From positions 2,542,001 through 2,606,000 of the forward strand of contig JANJGN010000052.1 in assembly GCA_026770705.1 (NCBI GenBank): a stretch of DNA of 64,000 bases, written 5' to 3'. Origin of the DNA: Isurus oxyrinchus. Its lineage: Eukaryota. Made by a program: the position numbers and the translations under genes. A model generated the notes under the pieces. The model saw nothing but the letters and a program-made list of their open reading frames with translations. It had not been told where the DNA came from and did not search any database. Position 1 is the stretch's first letter, and each line of letters opens with the position of its first letter. Shown piece after piece: positions 9,902-63,656 of the stretch.

Positions 9902-12549
9902 CTCTCCCTCTCTCTCTCTCTCTCTCCCTGTCTCTGTCTTTCTTTCTGTGTCTGTCTCTCATTCCCTATCTCCAGCTCCTCCTTTAAGATGCCCGTTAAT
10001 AACTGACTTTGTTGACTCAGCTGTTGGTCTCCTGTCCCTAATATCTCCTCATGTACCTCAGAGTCAGGTGAAGATGTCACTAACAATCCCCGGATGAGCC
10101 TTGGGACATTTTGCTACATTGAAGGTGCTATATAAATGCAAGTAGTTGTAGTAACTCTGATCTGCTTCGATTAACAATGGAACCACAAAGGCTCCTTCGA
10201 CAGGGCGTGTGTGCAGCAGGATCACAATAAATACATTGAGCTGTGAGATTTTTAATTCTTTCATCGAATGTGGCTGTCACTGGTGATGTCAGCGTTAATG
10301 CCCATCCCTAATTGCCCTTGAGAAGGTGGTGGTGAGCTGCCTTCTTGACCCACTGCGGTCCATGTGGTGTAGGTACACCCAAAGTGCTGTTAGAGAGGGA
10401 GTTCCAGGATTCTGACCCAGCGACAGTGAAGGAACGGTGATATATTTCCAAGTCAGGATGGTGAGTGACTTGGAGGGGAACTTCCAGGTGGTGGTGTTCC
10501 CATGTGTCTGCTGCCCTTGTCCTTCTAGATGGTAGAGGTCGTGGGTTTGGAAGGTGCTGTTGAAGGAGCCTTGCTGAGTTGCTGCAGTGCATCTTGTAGA
10601 TGGTACACACACTGCTTCCACTGTGTGTTCATGGTGGAGGGAGTGAATGTTTAATGTGGGGGATGGGGTGTAGATCAATCGGGCTGCTTTGTCCTGGATG
10701 GTGTCAAGCTTCTTGATTCTGTGCTTTGTGCAGAAGTGATTTAAAGAGACAGTCCAGATGTTGGTGTAAGGTTACAGTGGGCTCTGTGTCTGTGCTGCAC
10801 TGACTCTCTGCTATATGATAACCACAGTGTGATATTGTGTTATTGCAGGAGAAAGACAGCGATGGAGGAGAGAGTTTCAGGGACCAGAGACATTGCATTG
10901 ACCCCCAGTCCACTCTCTGTGAAGCACCAGGTACAGGAGCTGTTTACACTCACTCCAAAGCTTCAATCTCAGTGTGTAGACAACACGTGTCCCAGATTCC
11001 CAGCCCAGTTACCCACTGATTTGTACCTGTGGAGTCAGCAATGGTTCAGTATCATGCTGTCTCTCTGTTATGACACAGCAACTGGTAAAGGCTGTTGTTT
11101 AAAATCCCAGAGGGAAACTTTAAACAACTGTCATAACCTATATTTCCCAGTGGAATGTTTGAGATGCAGCTCTAAATTCAGGAATAAGACCATCAGTTCT
11201 TGAGATGGGTTTATATCAAACTACATGAGACATTTATTAATTTTCACAAGTTAATCATATGCACATGGATACAAACTAGTACTATCATAACTTTTTAACA
11301 AATTCCCAAACTAACGTCCTCTAAGACAACCCATAGACTTTAAGCAGATTCCAAGCGAAGCATTTTCACCTCACAAATTCCAAATGAGGTTCCTTTCACT
11401 TTGGTTCCTTTGCAGACAGGTGCAGGCTTACAGCTGCTTTGATGTTACAAGCCTCTGCTCTGCACACACAAAACTGCTCAAGTTATACCCAGTGCTTCTC
11501 TTTGAATGTAAATTCTCATTGTATCATCAGGACCATTGATCTCCATCTCTTCTAACAATAAATCCCCTTTCATTGTCTCAATTTTATTAGTAATATAAAC
11601 ATTGATTGGTTTAAGAATTCACTCCCAGGCTTTGAATCCTCCTTTTAAAAATGCAATATGCCTCTTTACCTCTTTGTTTACATCTCAAAACTACTATACA
11701 TCAAAGTACCCAGATCGGCTGGCTTTTATCCAATTAAAACACACACACACACACCCACAGACTAAACCTCTGTTTAAAAATACAATTTCCAATTACAATA
11801 CATACGTGAATAGATTCATAACCCTTCCTCTCTCTTTCTCTCTCTTTCTCATCATGTCTCTGATTACAAGGTTCATGTTATTGAGCCTCACACCAGGCAC
11901 CTGAGTGCAGAATCCAAGCCGTCACTCACCAGAGCCATTACCGATTGAGTGCGAGACTGACAGAGGGTCAGTACTGAGGGAGTGCTGCTCTGTCGGAGGG
12001 TCAGTACTGAGGGAGTGCTGCACTGTCGGAGGGTCAGTACTGAGGGAGCACTGCACTGTCGGAGGGTCAGTACCGAGGGAGTGCTGCACTGTCAGAGGGT
12101 CTGTACTGAGGGAGTGCTGAACTGTCGGAGGGTCTGTATTGAGGGAGTGCTGCATTGCCATAGGTGGTTACTTTTATATGAATGGAGAGAAATTTAAACT
12201 CACTGAGACAAGACTGACAGTAACGAGGCTGCACAATAAGTTAACCCTATCAGTGCCATTAAATGATGTGAGGATGTCTTCTGTTTCCATTTCTCTGTAG
12301 GGTAAACAGAACGTGCTGATTACTGAGCCCCGGAACACAACCAGAGACACAACTAGTGAGGGGGAGACCCCAGCTCCCCGGGGTCTCTCTGAAGGTCCAG
12401 TGGGAGGCGATGCTGGACATGGAATCCCTGACAATCCCGACGAGCTTCTCTACGCCAATACCCAAGTCTTCAGGGTGCCCAGTGGTGATGGGTCTGTCCA
12501 CAGGGAAGAGGAGACGGAATACGCACAGATCAGATTCAAGCGAAACTGA
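3221..12549 (+). CDS. Siglec-like gene A, 3' portion (C2 Ig exon, TM exon, three alternative cytoplasmic cassettes); 5' exons lie before the window
   Basis: Phase-compatible exons 3221-3502 (1-1), 4021-4117 (1-2), 4839-4920 (2-0), 6357-6605 (0-stop), all paralogous to gene B exons. A 414-N gap between the C2 and TM exons could hide more exons. Confidence 0.8.
4021..4117 (+). CDS. Gene A transmembrane exon [33 protein letters not shown]
   Basis: ttttacag acceptor, gtaagt donor, 97 nt; hydrophobic stretch followed by basic residues; nearly identical to 36534-36630. Confidence 0.88.
4245..4700 (-). mobile_element. LINE 3' fragment (CR1/L2-like family); copies at about 7195-7640 and 10265-10715
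   Basis: Reverse complement matches the + copies at 14480-14900 and 40500-40900 ([35 protein letters not shown]). Confidence 0.8.
4839..4920 (+). CDS. Gene A cytoplasmic exon 1, cassette 1 ([27 protein letters not shown])
   Basis: ttattgcag acceptor, cag|gtacag donor, phase 2-0 joins TM and terminal exon in frame. Confidence 0.8.
5056..5809. mobile_element. Solo-LTR-like element (TGTTATGA...TCATGACA); copies at about 7987-8920 and 11066-11822
   Basis: TG..CA ends with short inverted termini; absent from the paralogous gene B intron; a related copy interrupts a CR1 at 16598-17426. Confidence 0.65.
6357..6605 (+). CDS. Gene A terminal exon, cassette 1 (..[20 protein letters not shown])
   Basis: tctctgtag acceptor, phase 0, open to TGA; C-terminal TEYAQI motif as in CD33-related Siglecs. 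Confidence 0.82.
   Translation, partial: GKQNVLITEPQNTKRDATGEGETPAPRGLSEDAVGGDVGHGNPDKPEEFLYANPQDLRMSSGDGSVHREQETEYAQIRFEHN
7153..7158 (+). terminator. Putative poly(A) signal, cassette 1
   Basis: AATAAA about 550 nt after the stop, at the homologous position in all three cassettes. Confidence 0.5.
7770..7851 (+). CDS. Gene A cytoplasmic exon 1, cassette 2 (RKTTTEERVSGTSDISLTPSSLSVKHQ)
   Basis: Intact splice sites and frame; duplicate of 4839-4920. Use as an alternative exon is unproven. Confidence 0.6.
8415..8592 (+). mobile_element. CR1 3' end inserted only in cassette 2
   Basis: Similar to the CR1 3' end at about 55980-56150, including the tcttatgg tail; absent from cassettes 1 and 3. 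Confidence 0.7.
9418..9666 (+). CDS. Gene A terminal exon, cassette 2 (..[21 protein letters not shown])
   Basis: Intact acceptor and ORF; duplicate of 6357-6605. Confidence 0.6.
   Translation, partial: GKQNVLITEPQNTTRDTTSEGETPAPRGLSKGPVGGDVGHGNPDKPEEFLYANPQVLRMSSGDGSVHREEETEYAQIRFEHN
10226..10231 (+). terminator. Putative poly(A) signal, cassette 2
   Basis: AATAAA homologous to 7153. Confidence 0.5.
10849..10930 (+). CDS. Gene A cytoplasmic exon 1, cassette 3
   Basis: Intact splice sites and frame; duplicate of 4839-4920. Confidence 0.6.
12301..12549 (+). CDS. Gene A terminal exon, cassette 3 (..[21 protein letters not shown])
   Basis: Intact acceptor and ORF. Confidence 0.6.
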   Translation, partial: GKQNVLITEPRNTTRDTTSEGETPAPRGLSEGPVGGDAGHGIPDNPDELLYANTQVFRVPSGDGSVHREEETEYAQIRFKRN

Positions 12550-14134: not shown

Positions 14135-17100
14135 GGAAATGGGGAAAAGACAGAAAGGTTCTTAATCTGAATGCACGCAAGAGAGAATCTAACCAAGCCC
14201 CTTGACATTCAATGGCAGCACCATCACTGAATCCCCGAATATCAACATCCTGGGGGTTACCATAGGCCAGAGAGTGAACTGGACCTGCCATATAAATGCT
14301 ATGACAGTTAGAGCAGCTCAGAGGCTGGGAATCCTGCGGTGAGTAACTCACCTCCTGACTCCTCAAATCCTGTCCATCATCAACATAGCACAAGGCAGGA
14401 GTGTGAATGGAATACTCTCCACTTGCCTGGATGAGTGCAGCTCCAACAACACTCAAGAAGCTCGACACCACCCTGGACAAAGCAGCCCCGCTTGATGGGC
14501 TCCCCCTCAACCACAGCAACACTCACTCCCTCCATCGTCAATGCACAGTGGCAGCAGTGTGTCCCATCTACAACATGAACTTCAGCAACTCAGCAAGGTT
14601 CCTTCAACAGCACCTTCCAAACCCACGAGCTCTACCATCGTGAAGGACAAGGGCAGCAGACATAGGGGAACACCACCACCTGGAAGTTCCCCTCCAAGCC
14701 ACACATCATCCTGATTTTGAAATATATCGCCGTTCCTTCACTGCCACTGGGTCAAAATCTTGGACTTCCTTCTCTAACTGCATTGTGGGTGTACCTACAC
14801 CACATGGAGTGCAGAGGTTCAGGAAGGCAGCTCACCACCACCTTCTCAAGGTAATTAGGGATGGGCCATAAATGCTGGCCTAGCCAGTGATGCCCACTTC
14901 CCATGGAAGAATGAATATATTAAACATAAATTTGGAACAAAATGAATGAAGTTATAGCACAAATAGAGATTAATGGGTACGATAAGATGGACACTGCAGA
15001 GAGTTGGTTGCAAGGTGACCAAGGTTGGAAATTGAAAATTGAAGGATATTTGGACTTTTTGAAAGGATAGGAAAAATGAAAAGGAGGTGGGATAGCTCTG
15101 TTAATAAAAGATGAGACCTCTGAAGTAGTGAGAAATGATTTTGGCTCAGATGTCAAGATGCACAGTCAGTTTGGGTGAACATAAGGAATTGCAAGGGAAA
15201 GAAATCTCTGATGGGTTGGTTTATACTCCCCCCTGACAGTAGTTACACTGCAGGGACAGATTATAAATCAATACATGAGGAGGTCTGTGAGAAAGGCACC
15301 ACATTAATCATGGGAGTTTTCAATCGTCGTATAGATTAGACAAATCAGATTAGCAAATGTAGCTTTCAGCGAGATTATACAGATTGTATTCAGGACAGTA
15401 TTTTAGAACAACCCAACATGGAACCAACCAGGGAAGAGGCTGTTTTAGACCAGGCAATGTTTAATGAGACAAGACTAATTAACATCTCATTGTAAAGGAC
15501 CCTCAAGGGAAGAGTAATCATACCGTGTTGAAATTTAATATTCAGTTTAGAAACTTGGGTCTGAAACTAGTGTCATAAACTTAACTAAAGGCAATTACAA
15601 GGGTTAAAAGCAGAGTTGGCCCAAGTAGAGTGGGACAGCAGGTTAAAGGTGGGTGGGGTGGGTAGATGAGGAGTAACAGGCGTCTAAAGAGATCTTTCAT
15701 AAATTCCAATGAAGATATTTTCCAGTAAGAAAGAAAGAATCTATAAAAAGGATGGAGCATCGGTGGCTAACTCAGGAAGCTAAGGACGGTATCCAATTGT
15801 GAGATAAAGCCGGCAATGTTGGGATGCTTAGTGATAGGCTGGAGATTGGGAATATTTGAGAAACCAGAAAAGTGAGGGGAGAAATATAAGGAGGCAGAAA
15901 TGATGATATGAGAGTAAACTAGCAAGAACCATAAACAATGACAGTGAGATGTTGTACATTAAAATAAGAGAGAAGCTACAGTAATAATGGGACACATAGA
16001 AAATCAGACTGGGGAATTAATAATGGGAAACAAGGAAATGACAGAGACTTTCAACAAGAATTTTGTGTCTGTCTTCACAGTAAAAATCTCTAAAACCATC
16101 CCAATAGCAGGAGAAAGTCACGGTGCAACAAGGAGGGAGGAACATAAAACAATCACTATCACCAGAGAAAAAGTATTAAGAAAACTAATGAGACAAATGC
16201 TGACAAGTCCCATGGAGCAGACGGCCTGAATGTGAGGGTCTGAAAGGAAATGGCTGCAGAGACGGTGGATGCATTGGTTGTAATCTTCCAGAATTCCTTA
16301 GATTATGGGAAGGTCCCAGCGGATTGGAAAAACATAAATGAAACATTTCTGTTCAATAAAGGGGGAGGTAGAAAGCAAGAAACCACAGGTCAGTTAGTCT
16401 AACATCTGTCATTGGGAAAATACCAGAATTCATTATGAAGGAGGGAGCAGCAGGACATTTAGAAAACCATAATTCAATCAGACAGAGTCAACATGGGTTT
16501 GTGAAAGGGATATCATGTTTGAAAAAATAATTAGATTTCCTCGAGGATGTAACAAGTGGATTGGATAAAGTGGAACCGGTAGATGTGGTGTATTAGGGAC
16601 TATGACACAGCCAAGGGTAAAGGCTGAGTTGTTCAAATCCCAGCGGGAAAATTGAAACAACTGTCGTAACCCAATTTTGCTGATTGTAATTTCGAGATGA
16701 AGACTTTGAATTCAGTAGGAATTAGACCACCGAGACTTGTGGGTTTTTTTATATAAAACTAAATAAACCATTTATTAATTTAACAACAAATTTAACACAT
16801 ACACATTGGCTACAAATAACTACTATAATAAATCTTTAACAAATCCCCAATTAATCAACCCCACGTAAACCTCTACTAAGGCAACAATGAACCATTGACA
16901 TAATATAGACACCAGGCAAAGCACATTTGACATTACGAATTCCGAATGAGGTTCCTTTGCAAGTTGGTTGGAGGCTACAGGCTGGTTAGGTCTGAAATGC
17001 TCCTGCCTCACACACACAAACTCCTTCCTTTATATAGCTAGCTTTCCCTTTGAATGTAAATTTTCCATTGTATCACTCGGTCTTCTGAACTCCAGCTCTT

Positions 17101-17830: not shown

Positions 17831-17998
17831 GTGAAAATGTCAGGGTGTCCAGCTGATCCTACTTGTTCTGTTCTTATATTCTTATACAGACACAGGGTTT
17901 ACTGACAGTGCACAGCAAAGTGCTGTTCACTCACTTTGTTCCAACTTCCTCATTTTGTCTCACAGTGACACATCAGCCCTTTCTAATTAAATACACAG

Positions 17999-18083
17999 AG
18001 GGAGCAGCACAGGAAGAGGTCATTCAGCCCAAGCAGAGCGTGTGGGCAGTTCATCCCCAGGCGAGCAGTCGGACAGGTCCTGG
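17999..18083 (+). other. 85-nt exon upstream of the gene B signal exon (probable 5'UTR exon), near-identical to the gene C cytoplasmic exon 61846-61930
   Basis: aaatacacag acceptor, tgg|gtaagt donor, no ATG; about 390 nt before the signal exon acceptor, as in gene C. Confidence 0.55.
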
Positions 18084-18515
18084 GTAAGTAACAGAACGAT
18101 TGGAATTCACTTCCACCACCAACACCGTCCTTTGTTGATGTTGTGACTTTATAAAGACATTTTCCAATGATCGATGCCTTTGAAAGATTTCTACTGATTA
18201 TTGAGATCTGGGTGTGAGGCTCAAGTCTGTTGTACAGAACATCTTTCTAGCTCAAGGGACATGAGCTTGGGGCATCCTGAGGTGGTGAAAGGTGCTATAG
18301 AAATGCAAGTCCTTCATTGTTTTTCTTTCTGAAAGCCTTGTAACTCTCTGCAGAGCACCTATCATCCCACAGAGAATCAAAGTAGTCTGTGAAGATATTG
18401 TCTAAAAGCAGTTCTGATCTCTCGAGAGCATTCGGACAAGAGGTGAAGTCTCATTAACTCCTTTCTCTTTCAGAACTTCAGAGTTAGAAGCTAAAGGAAT
18501 ATCTGGGAGCAGACA

Positions 18516-18555
18516 ATGATCGGGAAATCTTACTTCCTCCTGTCACTTCTCCAAG
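18516..18555 (+). CDS. Gene B signal peptide exon [13 protein letters not shown](V)
   Basis: ATG, hydrophobic core, caag|gtaat phase-1 donor; acceptor at 18473; conserved in gene C. Confidence 0.8.
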
Positions 18556-35900: not shown

Positions 35901-38673
35901 GCTGTCAGGTCTTCGTTTCCAATCTCCATACTTGACGACCTTTCTCTCGCTAACTGTCCTGAACAACCCTTTTAATCGCTGAACTTCTCATTCTTTAATT
36001 GATAAATATTATATATAAATGTTACATGGATTACTTTGAAATGCAACACTTCTATTCATAAATTGCTTAGAAATTACTAAACATTCAACAGACAATGAAG
36101 CAATAGCGAAGTGAGCTCACTGTTGAAATGTAGGAAACACAGGTACTGATTTGTGCACAGCAAGATCCCGCAATCCATCGTGTGATAATGACCTGATAGT
36201 CGACTATTTTAGTGAGGTTGGTTGTTACATGTGTAGAGACTACATACCCTTTAGGGAGGTAAGCATGTCTCAATGTGGATGTGACTCCAGTCTCATACAC
36301 CAGCATGGTTAACTCTTACCTGCCCTCTGAACTGCTCTCCCAGTTTGGGACAAACCAGTGGTTCAGGAACAAGACCCCCCACCACCATCTCAAAGGGAAA
36401 CTAGTGATGGACAATAAATGTCAGCATTGCCCGAGAATGAGTATTTAAACATTGAGTGAGTGTATCGCTTCTCGAGATACATCGGAGCATCATTGTAAAC
36501 CTGTAGTGCAGTAATTAATGGCTGTTTTTACAGGTAGAGACTCCAGTAAATGGACAGTAGGATTGTTCACGGCTGGGATCATGTTGAGTGTTTTCCTGGC
36601 TGGAATCTTCATCTTCATCTGTGTGAGAAAGTAAGTCTGAAGATTTAACTTGATTTTAATATAAACATTTGCTTCAATGTTCTTTCCTTAAGTCGGTGAT
36701 TGTTTCTCTTGGGATCAGCACCAGGTCCCTCTCTGTAAGTGATCCCTGTGTCCACTCTGATCCGGAGAGAACCTTTCATTGTCCTGTATCCAGTAAACAA
36801 TCACGAGACCCAGAGATTCCTCACTCTGCACGATTACTCCTGGATAAATATTTGCTTCAATGTTCTTTCCTGAAGTCGGTGATTGTTTCCCTTGTGTTAA
36901 GCGCCAGATGCCTCTCCGTAACTGGTCACTTTGTCCCTTATTATCCAGAGAGTGTTTTTCATTGCCCGTTATCCAGATGAATAATAATCAGTTGCTGTGA
37001 TCTGGAAGGTGCTGCCTGAAAGGGCGGTGGAAGCAGATTCAATAGGAACTTTCAAAAGGGGAATTGGATAAATACTTGAAGGGGGAAAATTTGAAGGGCT
37101 ACGGGGGGAAGAGCAGGGATGGAGGGGTCAGGCAAAATTGGATCACATGACACACTTCCATTATAGTGATATCACGCTGATATCCCTTATTGCAACTGGA
37201 GACAGTCCAGTCGTTGGTGTAAGGTTACAGTGGGCTCTGTGTCTGTGCTGCACTGACTCTCTGCTATATGATAACCACAGTGTGATATTGTGTTATTGCA
37301 GGAGAAAGACAGCGATGGAGGAGAGAGTTTTAGGGACCAGTGACATTGCATTGAGCCCCAGTCCACTCTCTGTGAAGCACCAGGTACAGGAGCTGTTTAC
37401 ACTCACTCCAAAGCTTCAATATCAGTGTGTAGACAACACGTGTCCCAGATTCCCAACCCAGTTACCCACAGATATCTACCTGTGGAGTCAGCAATGGCTC
37501 AGTAGGTAATACTGACTTTCGGTCCCTTCCCCCTCTCTCCCTCCATCACTCGCTCTTTGTCCAGAGACCTGAACACAATAATCACAAGGCACCTGATGTC
37601 ACTACTGAGGGAGTGCTGCACTGTCGGAGGGTAGGTACTGAGGGAGTGCTGCACTGTCAGAGTGTCAGTACTGAGGCAGTGCTGCACTGTCGGAGGGTCA
37701 TTACTGAGGGAGTGCTGCACTGTCGGAGGGTAGGTACTGAGGGAGTGCTGCACTGTCGGAGTGTCAGTACTGAGGCAGTGCTGCACTGTCGGAGGGTCAG
37801 TACTGATGGAGTGCTGCACTGTCGGAGGGTCAGTACTGAGGGAGTGCTGCACTGTCGGAGGGTAGGTACTGAGGGAGTGCTGCACTGTCGGAGGGTCACT
37901 ACTGAGGGAGTGCTGCACTGTCGGAGGGTAGGTACTGAGGGAGTGTTGCACTGTCGGAGTGTCAGTACTGAGGCAGTGCTGCACTGTCGGAGGGTCAGTA
38001 GTGAGGGAGTGCTGCACTGTGCGAGGGTCAGTACTGAGGGAGCGCTGCACTGTCAAATAGTCAATATTCAAGTGGTGCTGCCTTCTCGAAGAGGCAGTTG
38101 TGAGGGAGTGCCGCACTGTCAGAAGCCAGCACTGAGAGTACATTGTAGTGTTCAAGGTGCTGTCTTTCAGAACAGTTGTATAATGCTGACCATGTTTACC
38201 CTCTCAGGTGGTCGTATAAGATCCCACGGCCACATTTCCAACACTATAGCAGTGACACCCTTCAACAAAAATTTCTTCATTTGCGTGAGGTTCTTTGGAT
38301 GTCTTTGAAAAAAAGGGTTAAACGCTCTGAGCCACGACTGACACTAACGAGGCTGCACAATAATTTAACCCTATCAGTGCCAGTAAATGATGTGAGGATG
38401 TCTTCTGTTTCCATTTCTCTGTAGGGTAAACAGAACGTGCTGATTACTGAGCCCCGGAACACAACCAGAGACACAACTAGTGAGGGGGAGACCCCAGCTC
38501 CCCGGGGTCTCTCTGAAGGTCCAGTGGGAGGTGATGCTGGACATGGGAATCCTGACAAACCCGACGAGATTCTCTACGCCAACATCAACTTTTCAAAGCT
38601 GCCCAGCGGTGACAGGACTGTGCACAGGAGCGAGGACACAGAATACGCACAGATCAGGTTCCAGAAAAACTGA
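18516..38673 (+). CDS. Siglec-like gene B: inhibitory-type, V + C2 + 8 repeated C2, TM, ITIM + ITSM-like tail (about 1129 aa)
   Basis: join(18516-18555, 21981-22349, 24755-25051, 25599-25880, 26766-27047, 27822-28103, 28843-29124, 32509-32790, 33598-33879, 34662-34943, 35435-35716, 36534-36630, 37302-37383, 38425-38673) = 3390 nt, open, all GT-AG. Requires skipping 24015-24383. Confidence 0.85.
21981..22349 (+). CDS. Gene B Siglec V-set domain exon with the essential Arg (codon 22286-22288)
   Basis: SCVQIPC (two Cys), W in strand C, GDCSL Cys in strand E, and [10 protein letters not shown] with Arg in place of an F-strand Cys: the Siglec signature. Confidence 0.93.
22980..23955 (-). mobile_element. 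CR1 RT/3' fragment, interrupted by a short Penelope-derived piece (about 23745-23881)
   Basis: Minus strand reads as CR1 C-terminal remnants ([10 protein letters not shown]; [11 protein letters not shown]). 23745-23881 resembles the Penelope terminus at about 29650-29750. Confidence 0.7.
24015..24383 (+). pseudogene. Duplicated V-set exon with an in-frame TAG at 24311-24313
   Basis: Same length (369 nt) and splice sites as 21981-22349; TAT>TAG at the Tyr of YFFR; an extra Cys (YPSCLEN). Confidence 0.9.
24755..25051 (+). CDS. Gene B second Ig (Siglec linker C2) exon
   Basis: [39 protein letters not shown]; the extra Cys fits the Siglec V-C2 interdomain disulfide; phase 1-1. Confidence 0.9.
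25599..25880 (+). CDS. Gene B repeated C2 exon 1
   Basis: 282 nt, AG/GT, phase 1-1, open. Confidence 0.88.
26766..27047 (+). CDS. Gene B repeated C2 exon 2
   Basis: 282 nt, AG/GT, phase 1-1, open. Confidence 0.88.
27822..28103 (+). CDS. Gene B repeated C2 exon 3
   Basis: 282 nt, AG/GT, phase 1-1, open (YLC variant). Confidence 0.88.
28843..29124 (+). CDS. Gene B repeated C2 exon 4
   Basis: 282 nt, AG/GT, phase 1-1, open. Confidence 0.88.
29649..31973. mobile_element. Penelope-like retroelement insertion with an inverted duplication and a 13-bp TSD
   Basis: GIY-YIG domain [26 protein letters not shown] (31107-31436) and RT C-terminus [18 protein letters not shown] (30685-). 29649-30620 is the reverse complement of about 31000-31935. 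gtaattacagcgt at 29636-29648 and 31974-31986. Confidence 0.92.
31835..31873 (+). ncRNA. Minimal type I hammerhead-ribozyme-like motif of the Penelope element; mirror copy 29713-29751 (-), partial copy about 23843-23881 (-)
   Basis: agtt-CTGTCGA-a-gggtc(atgag)gactc-GAAAC-GTC-aact: stem I agtt/aact, stem II gggtc/gactc, palindromic ACGT. The core deviates from CUGAUGA here; the 23843 copy has CTGATGA. Confidence 0.6.
32509..32790 (+). CDS. Gene B repeated C2 exon 5
   Basis: 282 nt, AG/GT, phase 1-1, open. Confidence 0.88.
33598..33879 (+). CDS. Gene B repeated C2 exon 6
   Basis: 282 nt, AG/GT, phase 1-1, open. Confidence 0.88.
34662..34943 (+). CDS. Gene B repeated C2 exon 7
   Basis: 282 nt, AG/GT, phase 1-1, open. 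Confidence 0.88.
35435..35716 (+). CDS. Gene B repeated C2 exon 8
   Basis: 282 nt, AG/GT, phase 1-1, open. Confidence 0.88.
36534..36630 (+). CDS. Gene B transmembrane exon [33 protein letters not shown]
   Basis: 97 nt, phase 1-2, uncharged hydrophobic helix. Confidence 0.9.
37302..37383 (+). CDS. Gene B cytoplasmic exon 1
   Basis: 82 nt, phase 2-0, paralogous to 4839-4920. Confidence 0.82.
38425..38673 (+). CDS. Gene B terminal exon with ITIM ILYANI (38569-38586) and ITSM-like TEYAQI (38638-38655)
   Basis: Matches (I/V/L/S)xYxx(L/V/I) and TxYxxI, the arrangement seen in CD33-related Siglecs. Confidence 0.88.
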   Translation, partial: GKQNVLITEPRNTTRDTTSEGETPAPRGLSEGPVGGDAGHGNPDKPDEILYANINFSKLPSGDRTVHRSEDTEYAQIRFQKN

Positions 38674-49150: not shown

Positions 49151-50381
49151 CTAATATTGGACTAATCTCCAGGCGAGGTTGGCTGGATGGATTATTGACA
49201 AGGTCCATTCACCCTGTAAAGAGTTTCTCTGGTTTGAAATACCCGATCAAACATCAAGTTCTGTGTCTAAACTTTGTGTTGAAAAGACACCTTTCCAGCT
49301 CTTCACCTGCCATTAGGTTGTTGAGTCTTCACATGCTCCGTCTGTCCGTGGCCAACCCCTCTTATCTCATCCTTTCCTTGTGGTACATCGAGCTGTTCAT
49401 CCTGACGGGTTCCCTCCTTCCCAGTAACACTCCATCTCCAACATCAAACTAACTCCCAACACGTTGATGAATTGTATGGATTCCAGCGTCAGTTGGTTCT
49501 GTCTGAGGCTGTTTCTCTGATCGGGGACCGAGCTGTTCTGAACGGACATTGTGTTCAGCAGTTCTTATTGCAGATCAGACTGTTCAACCAATGCTGCTGT
49601 TCACTGAGGTGACTCCGATTCTACATTCACACATTAATGATCTCATGTCCAGCAGCAAACATCTGAATGAAGCCAGGTTCAAGAAAAAACCCAGCTGCTT
49701 GATCCGACAGTTATCTGTTCAGGCATGGCCCCTTGTTCCAAATAACAAACATTATTTAAAAATAGTCATCACATGAGCCTGGTTAACAAGGAAATGAAAC
49801 CATGAACAATTTGCAGTAAAGTGAAACGTACAGGACAATCTATTTATATAGAGCTGATGATTTATTTTACACGAGACATGTTGCTAATTTCAAACATCAT
49901 CCGAACTATGGCAGTTCTGACAGTGCAGCACTTCCTCAGTACTGACCCTCTGACAGTGCAGCACTCCCCCAGTACTGACCCACTGACAGTGCAGCACTCC
50001 CTTGGGACTGAATCCAGAGATACAAGGAAGAGACTGAAGAGCTGACGATTCAGCTGAATTTAAAAACAGAGGCAGTTACAGAATCACAACAAGTTTACAG
50101 AGCAGAAGGAGGCCATTCAGCCCCTCGAGCCTGTTACACAGGAACTGGAGCGGCCATTCAGCCCCCTCGAGCCTGTTACACAGGAACAGGAGGAGGCCCA
50201 TTCAGCCCCTCGAGACTGTTACACAGGAACAGGAAGAGGCAATTCAACCACATTCTTGACACCAAAGGGGTTACCAGTTTGCTTACGGTGGAAGACAGAG
50301 AGTTGGTTTCTCAAATTCACACAAACCAACTCACATTTTGACTCACAGAGACACATTCACCCTTTCTAATTAAATACACAG

Positions 50382-50466
50382 AGGGAGGAGCACAGGAAGA
50401 GGTCATTCAGCCCAAGCAGAGCGTGTGGGCAGTTCCTCCCCAGGCGAGCAGTCGGACAGGTCCTGG
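50382..50466 (+). other. 85-nt exon upstream of the gene C signal exon (probable 5'UTR exon)
   Basis: Paralog of 17999-18083 and 61846-61930 with AG and GTAAGT sites. Confidence 0.55.
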
Positions 50467-50899
50467 GTAAGTAACGGAACAATTGGAATTCACTTCCACC
50501 ACCAACACCGTCCTTTGTTGATGTTGTGACTTTATAAAGACAGATTCCAATGATTGATGCCTTTGAAAGATTTCTACTGTTTATTGAGATCTGGGTGTGA
50601 GGCTCAAGTCTGTTGTACAGAACATCTTTCTAGCTCAAGGGATGAGGAAAATGGGATGCCCTGAGCTGGTGAAAGGTGCTATAGAAATGCAAGCCCTTCA
50701 TTGTTTTTCATTCTTAAAGCCTTTTAACTCTCTGCAGAACACCTATCATCCCACAGGAAATCAAATTAGTCTTTGAAGTCATTGTCTAAAAGGAGTTCTG
50801 ATCTCTCGAGAGCTGTCGGACAAGAGGTGAGGTCTCATTAACTCCTTTCTCTTTCACAGTTTGAGAGTGAGAAGTGGATGGAATATCTGGGAGTGGACA

Positions 50900-50939
50900 A
50901 TGATCAGGAAATCTTACTTCCTCCTGTCACTTCTCCAAG
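50900..50939 (+). CDS. Gene C signal peptide exon [13 protein letters not shown](V)
   Basis: Paralog of 18516-18555; acceptor at 50859. Confidence 0.8.
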
Positions 50940-53900
50940 GTAATATCATCATCAGATTTAATGTTAATAGTCTCTGTCAAGGATCATTCTTATTGAGCTG
51001 TGATTGGGAACCGATTCAGCAGTGATCCAGTGTACAAACACACACCAAGTCCCATTCACCCATCACCCCTGTGCTCACTGATATACACTGACTCCCTGTG
51101 TGACAGCAGAATTGGAAGTGATCAGAGATCTCAGAGAGTTGTAGGGACTGGAGGACGTTACAAAGTTCAGCAGAATTGTAGCAGCGAGAGCAGGATCTTA
51201 AAATTCAGGTGCTGTCAGACGTTGGTCAGTGAGCGATGGGGAGTGATGGGTTGAGTAGAGAAGCAAAGATAAAAACTGGGGGATGAAGACTATCCTGCTG
51301 CGAGGTCTCCGATAGCAATGGCCTGAAATTTGTGTCCTTTGCTGCCTTTATTCAAAATTTCCCATGAAGACAACACAGCAGCTCCTAGAATAGACAGGCT
51401 GTTCAGTGTCACACTTCCTGTCCATTCTCACCATGCTAGATACTTCAATAAGGGAGCAAGATAACTGAAAGAGAGAAGGGAGGCAAAGCTGTCTGTGTGT
51501 AAAACTGTCAAATATTCTGAGTTATCATGAGTGTCTCTGATCTGCTGCAGAGTTTAAATTTCACAGAATCTGAGCACTTTGCAGCTCAGAGAGAGACCAT
51601 TGACTCACTGCCTGAAAGGCCGGTGGAAGCAGATTCAACAGGAACTTTCAGAAGGGGAACTGGATAAATACTTGAAGGGGAAATTTGCAGGGATGTGCGA
51701 AAGGTGCTGGAGAGGAATTGGGAAAGAGCCAGCACATGCACGATGGGTCAAATGAGCTCCTCCTGTGTTGTATCATTCAACAATCAGACAATTTAAGACC
51801 CTTGTCAGCAAAACTTCAGAATCCTGCTGAATCACAGATGTTTCAGAAGGACAGGGAACACGAGGTTTCTGGTATCAGCGTTTCATGTGGGGCCCTGCTC
51901 AGTTTGAACAAATAAACAACACCATCTTTGAAAGTCATGAACCCAACACAGGGGCACCTCCGACACATGCAGAGCTCAGGCTAGAGGCACTTTGTTAGTG
52001 TGTTTCACAGTGTCTGCTGGAGTAGGGTCAGTGCTGAGCTTGGGGACAAGTCAGTCTACAATGCTGCATCGGAATCAACAATACAACAATATGGGGTTTA
52101 GATCAGAAATAATCCATTAGACAATGAGGATCCAAAGAGATTCCTTAGACAATGAGGATCCAAAGAGATTCCTTAGACAATGAGGATCCAAAGAGATTCC
52201 TCAGACAATGAGGATCCAAAGAGATTCCTCAGACAATGAGGGTCCAAAGTGATTCCTTAGACAATGAAGATACAAAGTGCACCAATCAGATTGAACCAGA
52301 TTAGCTAATCAGCTGTGTTGAAGAGCAAACAGGAATGTTAGGCTAATTAGTGATTCATGACGGTGATAATGGGGGGAGTTCTGAGGGCTCCTAATCCATT
52401 GTCCTGTCTTGTAAATCAGCACTGAATGGATCTCAATGGGTGGGTCTCGTAGACACTGTGTTGGGTGGAAGACTGGCTTCACTAAGGGGAAGCGGCAGTA
52501 GAGAGGCATTGTCACTGGGCTAGTATTCCAGAGGCCCAGGGTGATGCTCTGGGGCCCTGGGTGTAAATCCCATCACAGCAGATGAATGGGATTAAAAAGC
52601 CTGGTTCACTGATCCCCTTCAGGGAAGGAAATCTCCACCCTTACCGAGTCTGGCCTACATGTCACTCCAAACCCACAGCAATACAATTGATTCTTAAATG
52701 CCTCTGATGGACATGGGATGGGTAATAAATGCTGGGCACATCCCATGAACGGATAATTTGAAAAACACATGACTTGGAGACACTGTGTTGGGTGGAAGAC
52801 TGGCTTCACTAAACAGGGTCCTGAGGACCATGAGCCAATGTAGAATGAACTTGTCCACTCCTGTGTCCAGGATTCTCTTCCATCCATTGTGAAACCTTGG
52901 GGAGATCCCTGTGTGTCCTGTAGATGGTCCACACTGCAGCCACTGTGCCCCAGTGATGGACGGGGTGGATATCGAGTCTAGTGGATCTACAAACCATCCA
53001 GAGTTAAATATTGATATTTCTCTCCCCAGTTGGACTGTCACAAGAGTGGAAAGGTGACACTCCACGAGAGGTGACAGCGCAGGAAGATTCGTGTGTACAG
53101 ATTCCATGTCATTACAGTTATCCATCACATTTGGAAAGCCAACCACGAGTCGGAGTCTGGTTTAATAATGAGAATCAGATTCCTGGATCTCCCATTGCCT
53201 TTCACTCCAAGGATCACAGTCACGAGTTACCACGGTTCCACCATCGGACCCGGCTGTCTGGAGACCTGAAAGATGGCGACTGTTCCCTGATTATAAACAA
53301 CATCAGACGGGAAGATGCAGGACCTTATTTTTTCAGGATAGAATTTGACAGCAGTAATAGTTACAACTACTATCCTGTAACCCAGCTTCACGTTTCTGGT
53401 AAGTGCTGTGTTATAATTACTCAACAATTCACATCCAACACTCAATGGGAATTAACACAAACTGTGACGTTTACATATTAACACAAAACACAGCTTATTA
53501 TAACACACTGTCTGATTCTCAATAACCTGCTGATAGCTTCCAGTTCAGTCCTAAAGCAACCTCTAATACTCACTTTAATATCAATGATTAAATGTATTGA
53601 CTGTGTCCATCAAAGTTATCAGGTTATCCACTCTCATCGATCTCTCTAATCCTGTTTAAAATAATTTCCTGATCATTGTAACCTCTCAGTTCTGATATCA
53701 TCCTTGCAAAGGTGCTTTCTCTTGTGGGACTGTGATTTCTATTTGAACTGATGCTTCACGTTATATTTCTCTAAAAGGATCCATTCTCCGTCTGTTAGAT
53801 TTCACAGATAAACCCACGATATTCCCTGCTGAAATTATTGCAGGAAAGCCTGTGGATGTAAGCTGCACCTTCAACACAACGTGCAATGGAACAGCAGCAC

Positions 53901-59900: not shown

Positions 59901-62900
59901 TTAACCACTGCAGTCCATGTGGTGTAGGCGCACCCACAGTGCTGTTAGGGAGGGAGTTCCAGGATTTTGACCCAGCGACGGTGAAGGAACGGCCGATATA
60001 GTTCCAAGTCCCAGGGCAGACCACCACCTCAAGTTCACCTCCAAGTCAAACCCCTCACTGACTTGGAACTGTCTTGGTGGAAGAGGTTAAGTGTTTGGAA
60101 GGTGCTGTCGAAGGAGCCTTGGTGAGTTGCTGCAGCGCATCTTGTAGATGGTGCACACACTGCTGCCATTGTGTGCCAGTGGTGGAGGGTATGAATGTTT
60201 ATGCTGGTGGATTGGCTGTCGATCAAACAAGCTGCTCCTGGATGGTGTCGAGGTTCTTGAGTGTTGTTGGAGCTGCACTTATCCAGCCAAGTGGAGATTA
60301 TTCCATCACACTCCTGACTTGTGCCTTGTCCGATGGTGGACAGGCTTTGGGGAGTCAGGAGGTGAGTTACTCACCGCAGAGTTCCCAGCCTCTGACCCGC
60401 ATTTGTAGCCACATTATTTCCTGTTGCCGGGCTGTTGCCAGGGCCAATAGCCTTTGCTGTATCCAGTATCATCAGCTGATTCCTGATGTCACGTGGAGTC
60501 AATCGAATTGTCTGAAAGCTGACATCTGTGATGCTGGGACCCTCTGGAGGAGGCCGAGATGGATCATCCACTCAGCACTTCTGGCTGAACATGGTTGCCA
60601 ATGCTTCAGCCTTGTCATTTGCACTGATGTGCTGAGCTTCCCCATCATTAAGGATGGGGATATTTGTGGAACATCCTCCTCCTGTTAGATCTTTAATTGT
60701 CCATCACCATTCATGACTGGATGTGGCAGGACTGCAGAGCTTAGATCTGACCCGTTGGTTGTGGGATCGCTTTGCTCTGTCTATAGCATGTTGTTTCCGC
60801 TGTTTGGTGTGTATGTAGTCCTGTGTGTCACCTCAGCAGCTTGGCACCTCTGTTATATGTGAATCCTCCTTATAGAAACCTGCATGTACATGGATATTAT
60901 CAATAAATATTACATAGATAAATGTTATTTATACAGAGCTTTCATGCATAGACAATATCACTTCACAAGTTCAGAATTACTACATGTACATAGAGAACCA
61001 TTCTCAAACTGTACTGGAGTCATTCATTGGCTGATTTTACAGGGCGAGATTCCAATGAATGGAAAGCAGGATTGCTTGGAGCTGGAATCTGTTTGAGTGT
61101 TGGACTGAGTGGATTCTTCATCTTCAAGTGTGTGAGAAAGTAAGTGTGAAGCTTTAATTGGTTGTTTTTGAACATGTTTTCTTCAACCTTCTCTCCTTAT
61201 AGAAAGAACTTGCATTTCTATAACACCTTTCACAACCCAAAACCCTTCACAACCCCTGAAGAGCTTTGATGTTCACCTACTGTTTAACATCTCATCCAAC
61301 ACTCACTGTTTCACAACTCAGTCCTGTAACAGGCAGTGTTGACCTGGACCATAAAATACCTTGTGACTTCCTGAGGATGTGAAAGGGGATATATAAATGA
61401 AGACATTTCTTTTGTTAGTGAATGCAATCTCTTTCCATTTTCAGTGTCTAACTCACTCTCTCTCTTACCTCCACTAATGCTCTCCTTCTCATTCTCTCTC
61501 TCATTCACTCTCTCCCCAATCTCCACTAATGCTCTCCTTCTCATTCTTTCTCTCGTCCTCTTACACATTGTTCAGTATCTCACAATTTTAAGGAGCGCTG
61601 AGCAACGTCTGCTCCATCAGAAGATCGACCTCAACACCTGGAGCGAGCAGTGAATTGAAACTCGCTCAACGACTGTTCAGATTTACACAGGAATCACGAC
61701 ACAGAGTCAGGACACAAAGGGTTAACAGTTTGCTTACAACACAACACTAAGGCCTTACGTTTCAGTGAAAGGGTTTTCACAATTGTTCCCCAATTCCTGA
61801 TTTGACTCACAGAGACACATCAACCCTTTCTCATTAAATACACAGAGGGAGCAGCACAGGAAGAGGTCATTCAGCCCAGTCAGAGCGTGTGGGCAGTTCC
61901 TCCCCAGGCGAGCAGTCGGACAGGTACTGGGTAAGTAACGGAACGATTGGTACTCACTTCCACCACCAACACCGTCCTTTGTTGATGTTGTGACTTTATA
62001 AAGACAGATTCCAATGATTGATGCCTTTGAAAGATTTCTACTGATTATTGAGATCTGGGTGTGAGGCTCAGGTCTGTTGTACAGAACATCTTTCCTGGTA
62101 AATTATGCAGACAGGTTACACACAGTCTACGATTATATTCCCTCAGGTCTAGAAGATTAAGGAGTGATCTAATTGAGGGATTCAAAATGATTAAACACTC
62201 GAAAGGGTCGATAGAGAGAAGCTATTCCCTCGGGTGGGGGTGGGTGGTGGGGGTCGGGTGGAGTCCAGAACAAGGGGGCCGGAACTTCAGATTGGAGCCA
62301 GGCCATTCAGGGGTGATTTCAGGAAGCACTTCTTCACACAAAGGGGAGTGGAAATCTGGAACTCTCTCCTCAATAATCAAACCCAACACCGAATACACAT
62401 CATGTTGATTGTCACTCTGTCCATTTCCATCTCTATTACAGAAGAGAGGTGAGGGGAAAGCAGGAATCAAATCGAACCACCGTGTTGATGAATATCGAGG
62501 TCCTGTTTATGAAAACTGTGAGCGTGGTTGGGCTTTGAGGAATCAGGTGAGTCACACACCACAGGATCCCCAGCCTCTCAGCTGCTCCAGTAGCCTGGTT
62601 ATTGATATGGCTGCTCCAGTCCTGTATCTGCAATGTTTTATACAGTCACTCCCAAACCCAACCAAACTCACACCCAACACCATTCAGAATCAATAATCAA
62701 ACCCCGATCAGAATCAATAATCAAACCCCGTTCAGAATCAATAATCAAACCCCGTTCAGAATCAATAATCAAACCCCGTTCAGTATCAATAATCAAACCC
62801 CGTTCAGTATCAATAATCAAACCCCGTTCAGAATCAATAATCAAACACCGTTCAGAATCAATAATCAAACCCCGTTCAGAATCAATAATCAAACCCCGTT

Positions 62901-63656
62901 CAGTATCAATAATCAAACCCCGTTCAGAATCAATAATCAAACCCCGTTCAGTATCAATAATCAAACCCCGTTCAGAATCAATAATCAAACCCCGTTCAGT
63001 ATCAATAATCAAACCCCGTTCAGAATCAATAATCAAACCCCGTTCAGTTTCACTAATCAAACCCCGTTCTGTATCAATAATCCAACCCCGTTCAGAATCA
63101 ATAATCAAAACCCATTCAGTTTCAATAATCAAACCCCGTTCAGTATCAATAATCAAACCCCTTTCAGAATCAATTATCAAACCCTGTTCAGTGTAAATAA
63201 TCAAACCCCTTCCAGTATCAATAATCAAACCCCGTTCAGAATCAATTATCAAACCCCATTCAGAATGAATAATCAAACCCCGTTCAGAATCAATTATCAA
63301 AACCTGTTCAGAATCAATAATCAAACTCCGTTCAGAATCAATAATCAAACCCCGTTCAGAATCAATAATCAAACTCCGTTCAGTATCAATAATCAAACCC
63401 CGTTCAGTATCAATAATCAAACCCTGTTCAGTATCAATAATTAATGTATCTATTGTGGGTGGAATTTTTGATTTGGATCAATAATACTAAACACTGATCA
63501 CTCTGATTGTCACTCTGATCATTTCTGTTTCTATTACAGAAGAAAGATGAGAAGGATCTGGAAATGAAATCTCACCGCGGAGTCAATCCTGATACAGATG
63601 ATGATCTTTACGCAAACTGTGAATTTGCTGAGGATTCTGTTTATGGGAATTTATAA
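50900..63656 (+). CDS. Siglec-like gene C: V + 3 C2, Gly-rich TM, ITAM-like/YxN cytoplasmic tail (about 557 aa), putative activating receptor
   Basis: join(50900-50939, 53030-53398, 53799-54095, 58551-58832, 59494-59775, 61043-61139, 61846-61930, 62442-62546, 63540-63656) = 1674 nt, open, all GT-AG with compatible phases. Confidence 0.8.
52117..52275. repeat. 28-bp tandem repeat (tagacaatgaggatccaaagagattcct), 5-6 copies; 2 copies at the paralogous site about 19745-19801
   Basis: Read directly from the sequence. Confidence 0.9.
53030..53398 (+). CDS. Gene C Siglec V-set exon, essential Arg retained
   Basis: SCVQIPC, GDCSL, YFFRIE; 13 amino-acid differences from the gene B V domain by manual alignment. 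Confidence 0.93.
53799..54095 (+). CDS. Gene C linker C2 exon
   Basis: 297 nt, phase 1-1, paralog of 24755-25051. Confidence 0.9.
54315..55262. repeat. 33-bp (and 31-bp variant) SINE-derived satellite array
   Basis: Unit actgaccctccgacagtgcagcactccctcagt. Confidence 0.92.
55263..56150 (+). mobile_element. CR1 LINE piece (5' fragment fused to the 3' end) embedded in the satellite
   Basis: [22 protein letters not shown]..; ends in tggtcttatggtctt. Confidence 0.88.
56151..58430. repeat. 33-bp satellite array with a 627-bp (19-unit) higher-order duplication; smaller arrays at about 2900-3090, 5960-6210, 9050-9300, 11945-12160, 25170-25470, 37600-38140, 46150-46445, 47560-47825 and 49915-50005
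   Basis: 11-aa periodic ORFs; near-identical ORFs at 57198 and 57825, offset 627. Confidence 0.95.
58551..58832 (+). CDS. Gene C repeated C2 exon 1
   Basis: 282 nt, phase 1-1, near-identical to the gene B repeats. Confidence 0.9.
59494..59775 (+). CDS. Gene C repeated C2 exon 2
   Basis: 282 nt, phase 1-1. Confidence 0.9.
59810..60850 (-). mobile_element. LINE fragments (same family as 4245-4700)
   Basis: Minus ORFs [16 protein letters not shown].. and [22 protein letters not shown]. Confidence 0.8.
61043..61139 (+). CDS. Gene C transmembrane exon [33 protein letters not shown]
   Basis: ttttacag acceptor, aa|gtaagt donor; same 97-nt length and phase as the A and B TM exons but diverged in sequence. 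Confidence 0.85.
61846..61930 (+). CDS. Gene C cytoplasmic exon 1 ([29 protein letters not shown])
   Basis: 85 nt, phase 2-0, open; exactly bridges the phase-2 TM exon and the phase-0 YENC exon. Confidence 0.7.
62100..62370 (+). mobile_element. CR1 3' fragment
   Basis: [14 protein letters not shown]..; [16 protein letters not shown]. Confidence 0.8.
62442..62546 (+). CDS. Gene C cytoplasmic exon 2 ([35 protein letters not shown])
   Basis: ctctattacag acceptor, cag|gtgagt donor, 105 nt, phase 0-0. Confidence 0.78.
62684..63441. repeat. 24-bp minisatellite (agaatcaataatcaaaccccgttc), about 31 copies
   Basis: Read directly; gives 8-aa periodic ORFs. Confidence 0.95.
63540..63656 (+). CDS. Gene C terminal exon [38 protein letters not shown]
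   Basis: tttctattacag acceptor, phase 0, TAA at 63654-63656; two Tyr motifs 7 aa apart with acidic residues upstream. Confidence 0.78.
   Translation, partial: KKDEKDLEMKSHRGVNPDTDDDLYANCEFAEDSVYGNL

Follow-up and report, generated by a model that had tools for sequence, protein, structure and literature searches.

An exon used both as a non-coding leader and as a coding tail exon in a shark Siglec-like gene cluster

How does one and the same exon come to lie ahead of the signal-peptide exons of two receptor genes and also in the middle of a cytoplasmic tail? The 64,000-nucleotide stretch of shark DNA analyzed here (the window; coordinates refer to its forward strand unless stated otherwise) raises this question with an 85-nt exon, called X below, that occurs at 17999-18083, 50382-50466 and 61846-61930, in each case with CAG before it and GTAAGT after it. 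An earlier note on the window had placed the three copies at exactly these borders. The two upstream copies agree at 83 of 85 nt, and each of them agrees with the third at 81. The downstream intron is alike for 164 nt (18084-18247, 50467-50630 and 61931-62094, the last ending at the edge of a repeat fragment), with 158, 157 and 159 pairwise matches, as the note's figure of about 165 nt had indicated, and the upstream flank is alike over about 45-60 nt. The block as a whole gives a 294-nt match at 96% (E 8e-135), which is far beyond chance.

The first two copies are non-coding leaders of genes B and C. They end 390 nt before the signal-peptide exon of gene B (18474-18555, encoding the peptide that also starts RefSeq shark Siglec-like models) and 393 nt before that of gene C (50860-50939), close to the 390 nt of the earlier description. 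The third copy is a coding exon of gene C; the frame is open through the transmembrane (TM) exon, X, a YENC exon and the last exon up to a stop at 63656, and X supplies the phase 2 to phase 0 bridge that had been proposed for it. The tyrosine codon TAC, which had been contrasted with TCC in the other two copies, fails as a marker of the tail: the A is found in 11 of 36 copies from tails and in 3 of 25 from leaders, the rest having C, and it is a polymorphism common to both groups.

Judged by their domains, the cluster genes are Siglec-like, of a CD33-related-like type. Pfam matches to V-set, Ig_CD22 and C2-set_2 fit a V-set domain, then C2-type Ig domains and a single TM segment, and the best PDB matches of the gene C V exon (53035-53400) are Siglec-5, -8, -10 and CD33 (E 3.5e-15 to 5.5e-14). 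Its YFFRIE aligns with YFFRVE of Siglec-5, and we take the F-strand Arg in it to be the essential sialic-acid-binding residue. Genes A and B end their tails with an 82-nt linker exon and an ITIM-like exon. In gene B these follow a TMb-type TM exon (36534-36630, 77% identical to the TM exon of gene C); the linker (37302-37383, phase 2-0) is the positional counterpart of X, to which no homology is detectable, and the last exon (38425-38673) encodes ILYANI and TEYAQI, which are ITIM- and ITSM-like. Gene A (4021-12549) has three tandem pairs of linker and ITIM exons and a Glu inside its TM (VLLAEIFIF), and in gene B (21986-35721) two V exons are accompanied by eight C2 exons, nearly identical to one another and matching those of gene C at 97-99%, a sign of domain-number variation.

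The tail of gene C is built differently, from a TMc-type TM exon (61043-61139, phase 1-2), X, the YENC exon (62442-62546, phase 0-0) and a last exon with LYANC-x7-YGNL (63540-63656). The YENC exon with its acceptor (62400-62546) looks like the beginning of the last exon with the acceptor there (63500-63656), so that YENC is likely a tandem duplicate of that start; it is absent from the white-shark isoform P0002 and from two divergent genes on contig C34 (see below). Three YxN motifs are present in this tail, presumably Grb2-SH2-like. Compared with the ITAM consensus Yxx[L/I]x6-12Yxx[L/I], as given in PMC13358205, the spacing of YANC-x7-YGNL fits and the residue at the first Y+3 is Cys, so the tail contains no strict ITAM. 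Since the TM segment also has no buried charged residue of the kind used in adaptor coupling, "activating" is a motif-based guess for this receptor.

Evidence that X is spliced in both positions comes from assembled contigs, presumed to be RNA, in which paralogues are not separable. They report the presence of a joint, not proportions or transcript starts, and because they were assembled from paralogues their joints are not assignable to the window's own genes. The exon joints relied on here have GT..AG borders. Leader X is joined to signal exons in runs X1, X5 and X7, from three studies, with a loose end in run X3; for gene C the junction expected at 50466>50860 is found as 50466>50858, 50860 and 50861, and the gene B leader is of the same spliced copy type. 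In these MIGKS-type genes leader X is thus a non-coding exon spliced to an ATG-bearing exon, and because of these joints the idea that the upstream copies are untranscribed relics fails. Summed contig depth rises across 50345-50419, at the gene C leader, which is at most a weak hint of a start site.

The two junctions that the earlier note had named for the tail copy are also present, TM to X (61139>61846) in runs X5 and X7 (organism B, two studies) and X to YENC (61930>62442) in runs X2 and X5, with loose ends in run X1, so the case it had allowed for, a tail copy that is never spliced, does not apply. Organism A (one sample, runs X1 and X2) has a TM to YENC joint that skips X, with depths of 1856 and 132, respectively; this is the only TM joint among those listed for organism A, where no TM to X joint appears, and no skipping joint was seen in the contigs of organism B. 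Skipping X shifts the frame and gives a predicted 32-residue tail that has no tyrosine and stops 8 nt before the last junction; the tyrosine exons are in frame only when X is included.

One could suppose that tail X serves chiefly as a copied internal promoter, or as a cassette with weak inclusion, that the usual product is the short tail, and that X to YENC transcripts start inside the intron. The single TM joint listed for organism A, found together with X to YENC, would suit this, as would broken X copies in 4 of 34 sampled tails (a 13-nt deletion, a stop, a donor change and a 1-nt deletion). However, organism B joins TM to X in two studies and shows no skip, three shark orders preserve both frame and length class, the tyrosine exons depend on X for their frame, the PU.1-like site of the leaders (below) is absent from tail copies, and contigs speak of presence rather than proportions; we consider this explanation improbable.

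The acceptor of leader X works as well, as seen from signal exon to X joints and from a loose end in which a LINE donor is spliced onto X. A LINE fragment with a GT donor lies at 14825-14851, 3.1 kb upstream of gene B, and matches that loose end (run X2), although the element is multi-copy. An alternative upstream acceptor, whose equivalent is used in signal exon to X contigs, would add 33 nt (61813-61845) and put a stop in the tail frame (KDTSTLSH*). Signal to signal joints also occur in the contigs, matching tandem X-signal-X-signal units, which lie at 2608.6-2611.3 kb and 2893.8-2896.0 kb of contig C52; since such units exist in the genome, circular RNA is not needed to account for the "back" joints from signal exon to X.

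The dual use of X is a family-wide feature of this shark Siglec-like cluster and no local accident. A contiguous census of 664 kb of contig C52 (the window plus 600 kb) finds 32 copies, namely 25 leaders, 2 tails and 5 extra distal copies, some of them damaged, and every one of its 25 signal exons is preceded by X at a distance of 0.39-1.05 kb, whether the gene is of ITIM or of YxN type. A search of the source genome with the X block gave 810 candidates, of which 40 were scored and 30 loci fetched; these comprise 28 tails and 2 leaders. The last exon of gene C type has 139 matches in the source genome, and among 60 of them, picked non-randomly across the ranking, 34 stand in the TM-X-YENC-last architecture, which by extrapolation (34/60 x 139) makes a YxN-tail subfamily with coding X of roughly 80 genes. 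That the upstream copies are nevertheless untranscribed duplication relics, or that the similarity is an assembly artefact, might be argued from the 5 of 32 census copies that are distal and in part damaged, but the leader to signal joints in three studies, the universal position of X and independent RefSeq models in other species make this scarcely credible.

The other 26 sampled last exons (for example L145 and L147-L149) are orphans with no TM, X or YENC exon upstream; 25 of them adjoin an inverted X-signal pair and are an amplified inversion junction. A MAG-like V exon type is found in the same cluster (for example L201-L206), with 16 full-length copies, a signal exon of its own (MGEVGLILIF) and about 100 further copies that match only up to residue 95-97. 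No X was detected in the 0.6 kb examined upstream of the MAG-like signal exon, and a search of the source genome for a close orthologue of the P0062-type V exon found none. Two older tail genes on contig C34 have an X that is 90% identical and is joined straight to the last exon; they have X leaders of their own, one of them partial, and of the shared intron no more than about 30-37 nt is left in their tails.

Comparison of 25 leaders with 36 tails shows that the two groups are hardly distinct within the block. In the exon, leaders differ among themselves by a distance of 0.020 and tails by 0.027, with 0.024 separating the two groups; the corresponding values for the shared intron are 0.037, 0.034 and 0.037, and 23 sites are polymorphic in both groups with 0 fixed differences, although recurrent changes at CpG may account for some of these sites. 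Further upstream (-188 to -115) homology falls to 78-79%; in the window this diverged, older homology is between the tail intron at 61658-61731 and the upstream flank of one leader type. The block tree interleaves leaders and tails, with 8 label changes (6-8 in bootstraps, and 0% of bootstrap trees with 1). Given one shared consensus, 23 shared polymorphic sites and diverged flanks, gene conversion probably maintains the likeness of leader and tail copies; among many cluster copies it would homogenize the block from -45 to +249. Homogenization is not universal, since the C34 tails keep only their short piece of intron and an X at 90% identity.

Independent constraint or a recent re-duplication, instead of repeated conversion, could also make the copies similar, and the AU test, which does not reject tail monophyly within the block (p=0.116), leaves room for that, as do the divergent C34 tails. 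Against it, the copies are no less similar in the 164-nt intron than in the exon, the 23 sites vary in both groups with none fixed, the upstream flanks of the very same copies are only 78-79% alike, and basking-shark models already have both uses; we think it quite unlikely that conversion can be dispensed with.

The tail use of X is old and is common to three shark orders, those of the carpet, ground and mackerel sharks. Automatic models from white shark, basking shark, Mustelus, Chiloscyllium and Stegostoma have the X peptide directly after the TM, and leave-one-out tests confirm homology among six such models (p=0.0005). Five batoid proteins (Hemitrygon, Rhinoraja, Hypanus, Mobula and Pristis) have a similar last exon with another TM and linker. 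By comparison with shuffles, no X-like linker is found in four of these five tails or in seven ITIM-type linkers; the Hypanus linker is weakly like X (p=0.0125) and is the sole segment of 13 to exceed the shuffles, and we do not retain homology of X to ITIM-gene or batoid linkers, the other 12 being no better than chance orderings. The check in other chondrichthyans that the earlier note had called for thus returns coding X in three shark orders and no X in the five batoid proteins. Near-identity among the copies is no sign of a recently formed chimera, the tail being common to three orders. One Mustelus model (P0011) connects TMc to the last exon through a linker other than X, which may be an artefact of prediction.

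Leader use is documented in a narrower set, comprising the source genome, organisms A and B (RNA) and one basking-shark read-through model. Beyond mackerel sharks and one further organism no leader was seen. The basking-shark models P0006 and P0007 read TM-X-X-signal-V, so this shark has both uses. Apart from these two, no X frame was found in the N-terminal extensions of 160 proteins plus 7 inspected by eye, and two metagenome scans found no X leader of a distant shark. The TM-X tail also occurs on MAG-like heads, in models P0001 (white shark) and P0064 (zebra shark), which indicates that the tail was shuffled between head types.

Which use came first? The leader copies carry a candidate promoter element, CTTCCTCATT, on the reverse strand at 17945-17954 upstream of the gene B leader, which is a PU.1/ETS-like site. 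The pattern CTTCC.CATT is present in 23 of 27 leader copies and 0 of 38 tail copies, counts of related copies and not of independent events, and it is degenerate in gene C's own leader. An AP-1-like TGACTCA was rejected as a leader-specific element (7 of 27 leaders, 28 of 38 tails), and a bacterial promoter scan gave no match, the bacterial consensus not applying here. Within X itself, nt 7-33 (61852-61878 in the tail copy) match, on the reverse strand, the 3′ end of an abundant LINE at 24 of 27 positions. This LINE, which we take to be a CR1, has 5013 exact pattern matches in the source genome (control 0) and Pfam RVT_1 upstream; the 27-nt match may be chance. A 42-nt tandem array of the same word lies upstream of C-type leaders (50103-50246 in the window).

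Of the two origins that the earlier note had offered, we favor exaptation of a 5′ leader exon into the tail, and consider it somewhat probable that X arose as a promoter-bearing leader, was copied once into a tail intron in the galeomorph ancestor and has been kept identical by conversion. A duplication breakpoint inside an ancestral tail finds no support, as the roughly 3 kb ahead of 33 leader-side copies showed no remnant of a TM exon or of TM-proximal intron. Batoid tails have no X, and the shark tail combines an ITIM-gene-like TM exon with a batoid-like last exon and has X at the seam. The 36 main tails have one upstream flank type, the 25 leaders have nine, and the tail flank is nearest to one of these (local score 80 vs a shuffled maximum of 38); the PU.1-like site and the LINE-end word point the same way. 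The event would have joined a block of at least 190 nt of upstream sequence, X and 164 nt of intron, all from one leader type, between a TM exon like that of the ITIM genes and a last exon of YxNC type. The AG and 3n+1 length of X would by luck have bridged phase 2 to phase 0, and we propose that for this reason X was then retained as a spacer keeping the tyrosine exons in frame, its loss by skipping shifting the frame to the 32-residue tyrosine-free tail.

The opposite direction, in which an old coding exon was copied upstream of a signal exon and spread with shuffled 5′ halves, has more to say for itself than the other alternatives, though we doubt it. Tail use is documented in three orders and leader use in the narrower set, the MAG-like Siglecs have no X in the 0.6 kb upstream and can still carry the X tail, the Hypanus linker has its weak similarity, and X comes with a functional acceptor and a frame that is open and exactly 2-0, neither needed by a first exon. 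The acceptor does not imply a tail origin, however, because signal to X and LINE to X contigs show that it is used in leaders too; moreover, four of five batoid tails and seven ITIM-type linkers have nothing like X, the 33 leader-side copies have no TM relic upstream, and leader flanks are more diverse than tail flanks. Of 26 variants in tails 11 are synonymous, against 4 of 19 in leaders (24% under neutrality; binomial p=0.03, Fisher p=0.20), which hints weakly that tails, and tails only, are under coding constraint.

X is, then, a real, RNA-supported and old dual-use exon: one DNA block acts as the 5′ leader of most genes in the family and encodes protein in a subfamily. It also marks the seam along which a shark receptor whose tail is of a non-ITIM kind was put together. 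Reads and gene models in the cluster will mis-join, since leader and tail have this exon in common. A further-reaching idea, that X is a captured Siglec promoter exon acting as a coding switch, with conversion by the numerous leader copies dictating its peptide in each lineage since before the carpet, ground and mackerel sharks split, we put forward tentatively, as a possibility that is probably wrong in at least some part. If true, including X would yield a tail bearing an ITAM-like pair and three YxN motifs, and skipping it a tyrosine-free decoy.

Coding X is already contained in public models: XP_078093142.1 (Mustelus), XP_048379657.2 (Stegostoma) and GCC37911.1 (Chiloscyllium) have TM-X-YENC-last. 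These are predictions, and their names give no hint that the linker is a leader exon. The literature searched on Siglecs and on exaptation of UTR exons, mainly openly accessible papers, yielded no description of a dual-use exon; in it the ingredients are known (duplication, exonization and conversion in Siglecs) and their combination was not found. TATA-less myeloid promoters such as that of human FcgammaR1b have a PU.1 site beside clustered start sites (PMC2191524), and leader X is similar in having a predicted PU.1-like site about 50 nt upstream. Primate LRRC37 captured a promoter by segmental duplication (PMC3371713). A promoter region copied to a new gene position is common to both systems; the LRRC37 copy stays a promoter, whereas the shark copy is translated, in the receptor tail of the same family. 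The closest parallel is in primate SIGLEC11 and SIGLEC16, where a block of 97-99% identity is kept by gene conversion beside diverged sequence (PMC5701461). There, too, Siglec paralogues with different tails share a converted block that includes the upstream region. That conversion links equivalent 5′ regions of two genes; the shark block, by contrast, occupies non-equivalent positions, leader and cytoplasmic exon, with two functions, and would extend paired-receptor gene conversion to non-equivalent positions within a gene.
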